This document shows positions 37,232 through 52,999 of a stretch of 64,000 bases of DNA, piece by piece. The position numbers and the translations under genes are program-made. Location: the NCBI RefSeq assembly GCF_041248615.1, contig NZ_CP158426.1; one strand, given 5' to 3'. Origin of the DNA: Escherichia coli (GTDB lineage Bacteria > Pseudomonadota > Gammaproteobacteria > Enterobacterales > Enterobacteriaceae). The notes under the pieces were generated by a model. The model was not told the DNA's origin, did no database searches, and was given only the letters and a program-made list of their open reading frames with translations. Position 1 is the first letter of the stretch, and the number at the start of each line of letters is the position of its first letter.

Positions 37232-38134
37232 CTAACCACCCGTTTTCAGGCAATATTCCGTCGTAGCGTGGCGTTCGATCCAGCGGATCATTTTACCCGC
37301 GATGTCGATACCGGTGGTTTTTTCTATTCCTTCCAGCCCCGGCGACGCATTCACTTCCATCACCAACGGCCCACGATTAGCACGCAAAATATCTACACCA
37401 GCAACATCCAGCGCCATCGTTCGCGCGGCTTTTATCGCGATTTCACGCTCCTGTGGTGTGATACTGGCGACGCTTGCCGCGCCGCCACGATGCAAATTGG
37501 AACGAAAATCGCCCTCTTTCGCCCGCCGTTCAATCGCAGCGACCACTTCATCGCCAACAACCAGACAGCGGATATCACACCCTTGCGCCTCTTTGATATA
37601 TTCCTGCACCAGAATATGCGCGTTCAGACCGCGGAAAGCGTCAATCACGCTTTCGGCCGCCTGACGCGTCTCCGCCAGCACGACGCCAATTCCCTGCGTG
37701 CCTTCAACCAACTTGACCACCAGCGGCGCACCACCGACCATGTCGATTAAATCGCTGGTATCATCCGGCGAATGCGCAATGCCCGTGACAGGCAGGTCGA
37801 TGCCCTGACGCGCCAGCAGTTGCATGGAACGCAATTTGTCACGCGCCCGGGCAATGGCGACCGACTCATTGAGCGGATAGCTCCCCAGCATCTCGAACTG
37901 GCGCAGTGCCGCCGTCCCATAAAAGGTAATGGCGGTGCCAATACGCGGGATCACTGCGTCAAAATGGGGTAACTTGCGGCCTTTGTAGTGAATAGAAGAC
38001 GCCGCAGGATTTATGTTCATGTAGCAAGAAAGCGGATCAAGAATTTCAACCAGGTGACCGCGCTGTATAGCGGCTTCACGCAGCCGCTTACACGAATAGA
38101 GCGTTCCATCCCGGGACAATATGGCAATTTTCAC
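37232..38134 (-). CDS. rimK: Ribosomal protein S6 glutamate ligase RimK
   Basis: 300-aa ATP-grasp [38 protein letters not shown]... Confidence 0.95.
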
Positions 38135-38194: not shown

Positions 38195-38906
38195 TTAGCG
38201 CGTCGCCCAACCCTGTTTGTGCAAATAATCCAGAATAAATGGGCGGCTTTCTTTAATGATTGTTCGGCGGATATGATCGCTCCAGGTATCCCGGCGATTA
38301 TTGCTGCCACGGGTCCGCCAGTTGTTCGTCATACTGCGCCAGTGCGTCTTTATCCAGCGGTTGATAGCTGTTTTCATGCACCAAAATGGAGGACGGTAAA
38401 CGCGGCTTAAGATCCGGATTATCCGCAGGCCAGCCAAGGCACAGCCCAAACAGCGGCAGAACATGCTGCGGTAATTTCAGCAGCTCCGTCACCGCTTCAA
38501 TATTATTGCGCAGGCCGCCGATATATACCCCGCCCAATCCCAGCGATTCCGCTGCGGTTAATGCATTCTGCGCCATCATTGCCGTATCAACGACACCGAG
38601 CAACAGTTGTTCCGCCAGGCCAAGTTGTGCATCCGGACAGATCTGTAAATGGCGGTTAAAGTCGGCACAGAACACCCAGAACTCCGCCGCTTGCGCTACG
38701 TGTTTTTGCCCGCCGGTCAGCGTCACCAGTTCTTCACGTAACGCTTTGTCGGTAATGCGAATAATGCTACTGCACTGCAAAAAACTGGAACTGGACGTCG
38801 CACGGGCGCTGTTAATAATCGCCTCACGCTGCGCTTCGGAAATGGGTTCATCAGTGAAATGGCGAATGGAGCGATGGCCACAAATAAGTTCAATGGTTGG
38901 CGTCAT
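38195..38906 (-). pseudogene. nfsA: nfsA (oxygen-insensitive NADPH nitroreductase) interrupted by a frameshift near 38313
   Basis: N-terminal 197 aa in one frame ends ...QYDEQLADPWQQ*; the recalled NfsA C-terminus TRGSNNRRDTWSDHIRRTIIKESRPFILDYLHKQGWATR is in a second frame (ORF 38195-38464). Confidence 0.8.
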
Positions 38907-39177
38907 TATCTTTTTCTCTTTCTGAACGTGAATATTGCGGTGGACGGTTCATCAGCTGTGGGGCAAGACGTTTTGCCACCTGAAGAATAACCACCACCGC
39001 AGCGGGAAGCATGAGCAAAACACCGAGAAAAATCATCAGAATCTGCACTTCTGGCCGAGAAAATGGCTCAGGCAGCGACAGGGAGCCGCTTACCGACAGC
39101 AGCGCCACCGCCAGCAACATCATTCCGATAAATTCCAGTATCAACACGCTTTTAGGCAATTTACCGATCGCGCGCAT
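38890..39177 (-). CDS. ybjC: Small membrane protein YbjC
   Basis: 95-aa ORF immediately upstream of nfsA, as in K-12. Confidence 0.85.
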   Translation of the reverse strand: MRAIGKLPKSVLILEFIGMMLLAVALLSVSGSLSLPEPFSRPEVQILMIFLGVLLMLPAAVVVILQVAKRLAPQLMNRPPQYSRSEREKDNDANH

Positions 39178-49480: not shown

Positions 49481-50047
49481 TCAGGGGGATTCATTGCTCT
49501 TATTTGCCGGAAATTTTCTATAAATGGTAGAAACGCCTACATCAAAAATCAGTGCAATACGCTGTCTTGATTCTCCGGCCTCGAGTAAACGTCCAATCTG
49601 TGCCCACTGTTCAGTGGTCAACTTAGGACGGCGTCCACCTACTCTGCCTTTAGCACGAGCTGCAGCCAGCCCTGCCCTGGTACGTTCAACTATCAGTTCG
49701 CGTTCCATTTCAGCCAGGGCACCCATGACATGAAAAAAGAAACGGCCCATTGGGGTACTGGTATCAATACTGTCAGTCAGGCTTCGGAAATTCACACCAC
49801 GCTGGCGCAACTCTTCTATCAGCGTAACAAGATGCCGCATACTGCGCCCCAACCTGTCCAGCTTCCAGACAACCAGCGTGTCTCCTGCCGATAGTGTCCT
49901 GAGCAGCTTTTTCAGCCCCGGTCTGTCGGACTTGGTGCCACTGATTTTATCCTCAAAAATCCGCTCACATCCCGCACAGTTCAGTGCATTGCGTTGCAAA
50001 TCGGTGTTCTGGTCATTTGTTGACACGCGTACATAGCCAATAAGCAT
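49481..50047 (-). CDS. Pin/Gin/Hin-family serine DNA invertase
   Basis: MLIGYVRVSTNDQNTDLQRNALNCAGCE...VWKLDRLGRSMRHL...; catalytic Ser in VRVSTNDQ; close to recalled e14 Pin and Mu Gin. Confidence 0.9.
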   Translation of the reverse strand: MLIGYVRVSTNDQNTDLQRNALNCAGCERIFEDKISGTKSDRPGLKKLLRTLSAGDTLVVWKLDRLGRSMRHLVTLIEELRQRGVNFRSLTDSIDTSTPMGRFFFHVMGALAEMERELIVERTRAGLAAARAKGRVGGRRPKLTTEQWAQIGRLLEAGESRQRIALIFDVGVSTIYRKFPANKSNESP

Positions 50048-50102
50048 GATCAATCCCCTGAATAAAAACCAGGGATGATGCCAGTTAGCTGTTACCTCTG
50101 CA

Positions 50103-50128
50103 TTTTCTTAAACGTTGGTTTGGGAGAA
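50103..50128. other. Invertase crossover site (pix/gix-like), invertase-proximal
   Basis: TTTTCTTAAACG-TT-GGTTTGGGAGAA, two 12-bp half-sites around a 2-bp core, ~56 bp upstream of the invertase start; the GGTTTGGGAGAA half is identical to the site in H in inverted orientation. Confidence 0.7.
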
Positions 50129-50572
50129 GGTGCTCCAGCTATTGGTGTTCCGTTCTTCTGGCCGTCCGCTGCAATGCCAGATACCGTAATCGAAAGCTGG
50201 TCCGGCATGGTGTTTTTGAAGTTCAACGGCGCGAAATTCTCTGCCACTGATTACCCTGTGCTGGCGAAAGTGTTTCCTTCGCTGGTATTACCTGAAGCCC
50301 GCGGTGATTTCATTCGTATCTGGGATGACGGGCGAGGGGCGGACAGTGGACGAGCATTATTAAGCTGGCAGGCAGCAACATCTTTATCGCAATTTGGAGG
50401 TAATTATCCAGAGGGGTCCGGCCATTCGATTGCTAATCACGATGGAATATCAGCACACGAGCCGGGTTTCTCTCGATACCATTACACCAGTAATTCAGTG
50501 GGTGATGGTGTGAATTTTATAGCCGTCAGACCACGTAACATCGCATTTAACTTTCTGGTGAGGGCTAAATAA
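50129..50572 (+). CDS. Start-less alternative tail-fibre C-terminal segment (Sv'), expressed only after inversion
   Basis: Frame continues in phase from the crossover site; encodes GAPAIGVPFFWPS...LPEARGDFIRIWDDGRGADSGRALLSWQ..., a typical tail-fibre receptor-binding C-terminus. Confidence 0.7.
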   Translation, partial: GAPAIGVPFFWPSAAMPDTVIESWSGMVFLKFNGAKFSATDYPVLAKVFPSLVLPEARGDFIRIWDDGRGADSGRALLSWQAATSLSQFGGNYPEGSGHSIANHDGISAHEPGFSRYHYTSNSVGDGVNFIAVRPRNIAFNFLVRAK

Positions 50573-51598: not shown

Positions 51599-52999
51599 TT
51601 AACAGCCTAACGCTAAAAATGAAGCGCCGAGGCCAGGAGTACTGGCTCTGGATATAAATTTAACCGGGTCGGGACTAAAACCTGCACAGGCAATATAACC
51701 AACAGCCCCGCTATCTGGTGTGTAGTCTTGTGAGACCAAAACACGCAGACATCTGTTTGGAAATGCAATCGGGAAATGGGTTACTACATCCTGTGCAATG
51801 CCTGGTGCGCCGATTGAGCCCCACTGAAGAATAAAACCTGATGGTAATTTTTGATATCCAGTACCTGAAACAGAAAGCGTGAAGCTACCCATATCAGGTA
51901 TCTGATTCGCCCCTGTCCCTACATTCCTTTTAGCCGCTTCTCCCAAACCAAGGTATGTGAGAAGACCAGCTACATCCTTTCCACTCAAATTGGTAAGCGT
52001 ATTGTCCAGCGGTTGTTTACCTGACAGCGCATTAAGCATTGTCGTGGCAAAGTTCGGATCATTCCCCAGCGCCGCTGCCAGTTCGTTCAGCGTATCCAGT
52101 GCCGCAGGTGCAGAACCCACCATTGCTGCAATCGCCGATTTCACAAAAGCCGTGGTGGCAATCTGTGTATTGTTGACCGACTGTGCCGCAGTAGGTGCTG
52201 TTGGCGTTCCGGTAAGTGCCGGACTCGACAGTGGCGCTTTTAGTTCCAGCGCATTGTTAATGGTGGTGCTGAATTTGGGGTCATTGTTTATGGCCGCGGC
52301 TATTTCTTTCAGCGTGTCCAGCGTGGCTGGCGCACCATTAATAAGAGCCGTCAGTGCCGCCTGAACAAACGCGGTGGTCGCAAGTTGCGTGGTATTATTC
52401 CCCGCCGCTGGCGTTGGTGCTTTGGGGGTTCCGGTAAACGTCGGGCTGGCTTTTGGCGCGTACTGTGAATGCGGGTCCAGTGCGGCAAGATGTTTTGCCA
52501 TCAGATCATCCGCGTACACCTTCAGCTCCAGTGCCTTGTCATCCACATACTTGCGGGTTGCCAGCACTACAGCAGGGTCGATTTTCAGGGTGATATTGTC
52601 CGTGCTGCTGGTAATCAGCACCATGCGCACGGTCTGAGTGCGCCCGCTACCTTCAGCCAGTTGCGGCTTATAGCTTTCCGGGCAGTTGCCCACGGCAATC
52701 AATGCCCCTGACTCATCAAACAAGCCCACTTCACGTATCCACCAACCGCCCTCGTTTTCAGGGATCACCTGTTCGGCAATAATCTGACTGCTGTTCTGCG
52801 GGTCGATATAGAGCATATTCAGCGCAGCCCGGCGTTTCTCATTTACCAGTGCAGTCTGCTTTGAGTCTGGCGTTGGCAATGCTCCGCCGCCATCGCCCAC
52901 CGCCATATGGGTAATTTTTAGCGGCACACCGAGCGCGGCGGCGCTGGCAAGTTTCGCCGCGCCAATATCCGTCAGCAGGGTATAAAATTTTGTGCTCAT
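51599..52999 (-). CDS. Tail fibre protein (P2 gpH-like), constant N-terminus fused in current orientation to variable tip Sv
   Basis: 466-aa ORF; crossover site lies in-frame at codons ~346-354 (YLGLGE). Confidence 0.85.
51938..51963. other. Invertase crossover site (pix/gix-like) inside the tail fibre gene
   Basis: TTCTCCCAAACC-AA-GGTATGTGAGAA on + strand; shares 14/14 TTCTCCCAAACCAA with the reverse complement of the site at 50103-50128. Confidence 0.7.

Follow-up and report, generated by a model that had tools for sequence, protein, structure and literature searches.

The question raised by this locus was whether the Escherichia coli chromosome that carries it has lost a functional nfsA and, if so, how far that loss takes the strain towards nitrofuran resistance. 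Clinical nitrofurantoin resistance normally requires the loss of both NfsA and NfsB. The window, that is, the whole stretch of 64,000 nucleotides that was analysed, contains nfsA on its minus strand between ybjC and rimK, and the features on which the analysis depends are as follows.

38195..38906, minus strand: nfsA pseudogene, the entire former coding sequence, 712 bp as against the normal 723 bp (RefSeq annotation and alignment to K-12 and AST215)
38298..38906, minus strand: surviving nfsA open reading frame, with 197 wild-type codons followed by D-P-W-Q-Q and TAA (stop at 38300-38298), p.Glu198AspfsTer6 (ORF list and translation)
38313..38315, minus strand: deletion junction, with 11 bp gone between G38315 and C38313 and a 1-bp microhomology at A38314
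38195..38314, minus strand: C-terminal remnant of nfsA, codons 202-240 and the original stop, shifted to the +1 frame and no longer translated, where R203, R208 and R225 were once encoded
38890..39177, minus strand: ybjC, intact, upstream of nfsA and overlapping its start
37232..38134, minus strand: rimK, intact, downstream of nfsA

Translation of the minus-strand ORF (38906..38298) yielded a 202-amino-acid product ending in ...QYDEQLADPWQQ before the stop. As far as 38195, the +1 frame still encodes the normal C-terminus of the protein, TRGSNNRRDTWSDHIRRTIIKESRPFILDYLHKQGWATR followed by its stop, without damage; the frame-2 translation of this remnant ends TRGSNN...GWATR and a stop. The 712-bp region was aligned with the AST215 allele, the closest intact allele, which served as a reference beside K-12, and the two were identical except for one 11-base gap. 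The alignment with K-12 nfsA, at approximately 99% nucleotide identity, likewise contained a single 11-base gap. Missing from the gene is AATATTACCTC (nt 593-603), which, because one A is ambiguous, can be placed just as well as ATATTACCTCA (nt 594-604), and the allele is accordingly named c.594_604del (equivalently c.593_603del), p.(Glu198AspfsTer6). The earlier note, made from the letters of the DNA, had described about 197 normal codons followed by a stop, a C-terminus preserved in another frame and about 11 bp missing near 38313 (between ctggcgga and cccgtggc), and had called this a lesion of the nitrofuran-resistance type. Each part of that description stands: the bases missing number exactly 11, the K-12 alignment that it proposed as a check reveals an interrupted frame, and a frameshift at this position is of the enzyme-inactivating type.

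The gene is annotated by PGAP as the pseudogene 'nitroreductase NfsA, frameshifted' in the RefSeq record NZ_LT599825.1, the chromosome of E. coli NRZ14408, and the gene order ybjC-nfsA-rimK-ybjN is common to this record, AST215 and K-12. The deleted stretch was neither a homopolymer nor a repeat, and no direct repeats of at least 5 nt at a spacing of 8-14 nt could be found within approximately 50 bp of the junction. The only trace that could point to slippage is the 1 bp of microhomology, and the origin of the deletion appears unremarkable. Chance is of no concern for a base-exact difference from more than 5,000 intact copies.

The protein that remains was compared with known forms of NfsA. 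The 202-residue product aligned to solved NfsA structures (1f5v, 7nb9 and others) over residues 1-198 only and to the NCBIfam NfsA equivalog NF008033 over positions 1-199 of 240 only; its NF008033 score was 365 bits, against a curated cut-off of 223 and the 438 bits of the repaired allele. The last 43 residues (198-240) of the full-length 240-residue protein are lost, and the G-H mobile loop (Y199, Y200, R203 and R208) together with R225 lies beyond the frameshift. The excursion domain of NfsA comprises residues 165-210, the end of which is missing here. Its mobile loop, 202-211, closes round the 2'-phosphate of NADP+ and, with Y199, Y200, R203 and R208, explains the NADPH preference of the enzyme, while R225, held in position across the dimer interface by E99, forms hydrogen bonds with nitrofurantoin and with most of the other ligands (PMC9912195, PMC8286842). 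More distal lesions, namely 212Stop and an insertion after codon 225, have been scored as inactivating in resistant isolates (PMC12554031), and NfsA protein was undetectable in four isolates with nonsense or frameshift mutations in nfsA (bioRxiv 10.1101/2024.01.25.577238). Loss of function is very likely, judged from the sequence, given the loss of the NADPH-pocket residues and R225 and the inactivating score of those more distal lesions. As far as its predicted product goes, the gene is a pseudogene of nfsA and no functional member of the NfsA family. Little polarity on rimK would be expected, since the new stop lies only approximately 100 bp upstream of the old one. A rimK deletion leaves the nitrofurantoin MIC unaffected (PMC9890214), so that any such polarity is irrelevant here.

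A search for the nfsA locus returned only one record that matched without a gap, NZ_LT599825.1, in which the locus spans 901 bases; it spans 912 bases in the other complete genomes among the matches listed. NRZ14408, recovered in Germany in 2014 from a wound swab, is a multidrug-resistant ST362 isolate that produces KPC-2 and carries mcr-1 (PMC6101002; supplement of PMC10790570). Because its segment 50130-51936 is inverted relative to this record, the window is not byte-identical to it and must represent another assembly of that strain or clone. Truncated NfsA is also encoded on a 5,345,375-bp contig in the protein database, the RefSeq record being 5,344,876 bp long; together with the inversion, this indicates that a second complete assembly of the NRZ14408 strain or clone exists.

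The inverted segment belongs to a P2-family prophage that adjoins ybjL, approximately 3.3 kb from nfsA, and occupies the window from approximately 42190 to 64000, extending past its end. Genes for ogr/Delta, gpD, tape measure, sheath and tube, baseplate, lysis cassette, capsid, terminase and portal could be assigned to it, and its ybjL-proximal end, which carries tail genes, is common to the assemblies GCA_020005525.1 and ERR2935576. The invertible 1.8-kb tail-fibre segment is 99.95% identical to its counterpart in NZ_LT599825.1 (one mismatch), is flanked by the inverted repeats 50103-50134 and 51932-51963, and adjoins a serine-recombinase gene of the Gin/Cin/Hin-like kind (49481-50053, minus strand). 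In the orientation found in the window, a 466-amino-acid tail-fibre ORF is intact (51599-52999, minus strand); in that of RefSeq, the annotation by PGAP has broken pseudogenes for an 'integrase' and a 'phage tail protein'. The segment is a classical phage host-range switch caught in both of its states. Another decayed gene of the window encodes a pentapeptide-repeat protein (24017-25255, minus strand) between ybjQ and ybjP, which RefSeq treats as a pseudogene, incomplete in that its C-terminus is missing.

The distribution of the junction was assessed among public sequences. When a 70-base query across the junction was compared with 5,426 complete E. coli genomes, only that of NRZ14408 matched perfectly, and an allele-agnostic search for the exact junction pattern returned no match among the JGI metagenome contigs. 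Neither collection gave any indication that the deletion recurs here as at a hot spot. The exact 202-residue product was present on 10-17 contigs (NCBI and Logan), against at least 1,000 contigs for the repaired 240-residue allele, which marks the deletion as derived and rare, in an allele that is itself common. As these sequence counts have it, the deletion is private or clone-restricted within that otherwise common background. The event cannot be dated, as the complete-genome set holds no close relative with an intact nfsA: the records listed besides NRZ14408 were at most 98.0% identical over 25 kb. Relative to K-12, the allele also carries the substitutions I117T, K141E, A172S and G187D, all functionally silent by experiment (bioRxiv 10.1101/2024.01.25.577238), so that the frameshift is the only candidate lesion in nfsA. 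The allele c.594_604del was not met with in the nitrofurantoin papers searched, and Wan et al. 2021 and bioRxiv 10.1101/2024.01.25.577238 yielded no match to an 11-bp deletion, codon 198/199 or ST362.

The deletion may reach beyond one isolate and have become fixed in an ST362 clone in circulation, which could stem from livestock or poultry and would then form a pre-resistant lineage carrying KPC-2 and mcr-1; this is a tentative suggestion that we hold to be rather doubtful. Pre-resistant clones of livestock or poultry origin have been described (PMC12554031) and offer a suggested parallel, and the livestock-type resistance genes of NRZ14408 would, speculatively, fit the poultry-associated scenario of that study. 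If such a clone exists, a single mutation in nfsB would take away nitrofurantoin as a treatment option as well.

The other determinants of nitrofurantoin susceptibility were examined in NZ_LT599825.1. The nfsB gene (3825998-3826651), which the earlier note had advised checking elsewhere in the genome, is uninterrupted and full length, encoding 217 amino acids of which 214 are identical to K-12. Of the three differences, V93A and A174E are silent by experiment, and E137Q has been assayed only inside an inactive triple variant (E137Q/K165E/L172F) in which the causal change was not separated (bioRxiv 10.1101/2024.01.25.577238). The exact sequence with V93A, E137Q and A174E was present on at least 1,000 contigs, as would be expected of a normal phylogroup allele. 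No loss-of-function lesion was thus predicted in the nfsB coding sequence of this record, with the caveat of E137Q. The ribE product (annotated ribH) was identical to that of K-12 at 156/156 residues, and oqxAB is missing from the resistance genes published for NRZ-14408, although other isolates of that table have it (supplement of PMC10790570). Between entD and ybdK (NZ_LT599825.1 3822943-3823834), the hokE toxin gene was present as two identical tandem copies, along with a hypothetical gene that is frameshifted; the entD-ybdK-nfsB upstream region has been discussed in relation to nfsB expression (bioRxiv 10.1101/2024.01.25.577238).

One of the pair nfsA/nfsB is hence obviously disrupted, by the nfsA frameshift, and the other is intact apart from the E137Q caveat, which is the genotype termed 'pre-resistant'. 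An engineered nfsA deletion alone has an MIC of 32 mg/L, an increase of approximately twofold that leaves the strain clinically susceptible, and nfsA deletion mutants gain an advantage at 4-8 mg/L (PMC9890214). NRZ14408 is accordingly predicted from its genotype to be 'pre-resistant', with an MIC raised approximately twofold, below resistance and one mutation short of it. Neither the supplement of PMC10790570 nor the papers checked among those mentioning the strain gave a nitrofurantoin MIC for NRZ14408. The view that NfsA loss is the common first step to nitrofuran resistance is supported. The suggestion in the earlier note of a resistance-associated lineage, however, was overstated, as nfsB is full length, ribE equals that of K-12, oqxAB is unlisted, and mutants in nfsA only remain susceptible at an MIC approximately twofold higher (PMC9890214).

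The alternative that survives best against this predicted phenotype is that the isolate is fully nitrofurantoin-resistant, the loss of nfsA being joined by a cryptic second lesion such as down-regulation of nfsB, a functional change in NfsB caused by E137Q, or an efflux determinant. Approximately one quarter of the resistant isolates in one survey had an nfsB that was functionally wild type (or nfsA together with nfsB), with activity lowered through reduced expression, and E137Q did occur in the inactive triple variant E137Q, K165E, L172F (bioRxiv 10.1101/2024.01.25.577238). These observations keep the alternative in view, but it appears unlikely when set against an intact nfsB coding sequence whose exact allele recurs on at least 1,000 contigs, a wild-type ribE, the omission of oqxAB from a gene list that has it for other isolates, and the papers found that use NRZ14408, in which nitrofurantoin resistance goes unmentioned.

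A second alternative is that the truncated or split gene still gives nitroreductase activity, whether because the 202-residue product is functional, because ribosomes shift to the +1 frame near the new stop, or because the C-terminal part is translated separately. The FMN-binding core (residues 1-197) is indeed intact, and the C-terminal coding remnant is undamaged in the +1 frame. Yet R225 has gone together with the residues of the NADPH phosphate pocket, Y199-S205 would be left out even by a +1 shift at the new stop, the sole ORF over the remnant opens with 47 out-of-frame residues, and truncations further downstream count as inactivating in resistant isolates (PMC12554031), which together make retained activity very improbable. 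Programmed frameshifting and a split NfsA enzyme were both rejected on the anatomy of the frames.

The junction was present in at least five separately produced assemblies, which may represent one isolate re-sequenced or several isolates: NZ_LT599825.1, the window's own assembly, GCA_020005525.1, and the Logan assemblies of ERR2935576 and SRR11318805. The last three were retrieved from among the contigs with the 202-residue product, and a literature search returned no paper that gives their accessions. Compared with the window, GCA_020005525.1 had one SNP in 20.6 kb, a synonymous change in ybjL, whereas ERR2935576 and SRR11318805 had no SNPs in 12.2 kb and 9.0 kb, respectively. The usual errors of long-read assemblies are 1-bp homopolymer indels. 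Although indels do arise in such assemblies, the weakest alternative, a sequencing or assembly artefact hiding an intact gene, which the earlier note had allowed for, is effectively excluded by the recurrence of the same junction in these assemblies, two of them Logan builds made straight from separate public read sets, by the inversion that distinguishes the two complete assemblies carrying it, and by the absence of homopolymer or repeat character in the deleted stretch. The 11-bp deletion is real and no assembly error.

Taken as a whole, the locus is best explained, with high confidence, as a genuine derived c.594_604del in the chromosomal nfsA of the ST362 isolate or clone NRZ14408, with an enzyme expected to be inactive and a 'pre-resistance' phenotype; within this explanation, the analysis demonstrates the deletion itself, its recurrence across assemblies, its rarity and an intact nfsB and ribE, and we infer the loss of NfsA activity, the effect on the MIC and any past nitrofuran selection. 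The deletion shifts the frame at codon 198; with translation stopping after 202 residues, the product has neither the final part of the excursion domain nor R225, nor the mobile G-H loop by which the NADPH 2'-phosphate pocket is formed. Such a truncated NfsA is expected to be inactive and is probably unstable, and less of the nitrofuran prodrug would be activated. With nfsB and ribE intact and oqxAB unreported, a modest rise in MIC below the clinical breakpoint would be expected, one nfsB mutation from resistance. The lesion may equally represent neutral decay.

The significance of the lesion is practical more than conceptual. Few oral agents retain activity against carbapenem- and colistin-resistant E. 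coli, nitrofurantoin being one of them, and two independent hits are normally required for resistance to it; a KPC-2 and mcr-1 isolate with the first hit in nfsA is one mutation from losing nitrofurantoin too. 'Pre-resistance' escapes routine susceptibility testing, and a lesion of this type is directly visible in a genome sequence. The gene is already established, as are the class of lesion, the mechanism and the epidemiological concept, and public annotation flags the nfsA of NRZ14408. The finding is correct, real and ordinary: c.594_604del is a new allele of a well-known pseudogenisation and no discovery, just as the 'pre-resistant' state itself is well known and fairly common.

Among known systems, the 'pre-resistant' E. 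coli described by Avison and co-workers (bioRxiv 10.1101/2024.01.25.577238, PMC12554031) resemble this case in having an obvious disruption of nfsA, here by frameshift, with a full-length nfsB, a wild-type ribE and no oqxAB. In those isolates nfsA is the gene more often lost, and it is also the one lost here, in a multidrug-resistant isolate; these papers differ in that c.594_604del (p.E198Dfs*6) and ST362 are not mentioned in them, and the MIC here is a predicted one. Also similar are the first-step nfsA mutants obtained by selection in vitro or in patients (PMC9890214, and Sandegren et al. 2008 as cited therein), in which a small deletion or frameshift abolishes NfsA; NRZ14408, in contrast, came from a wound swab and not from urine, and any exposure of it to a nitrofuran would be hypothetical. 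The NfsA truncation 212Stop (ST919/ST8874) and the insertion after codon 225 (ST6805) (PMC12554031, Table 1) are also alike, in that loss of the C-terminus alone is treated as inactivating, and the truncation in NRZ14408 is more severe than either, as it begins at residue 198. Those isolates carry nonsense mutations in nfsB as well and are phenotypically resistant, whereas the nfsB of NRZ14408 is intact.
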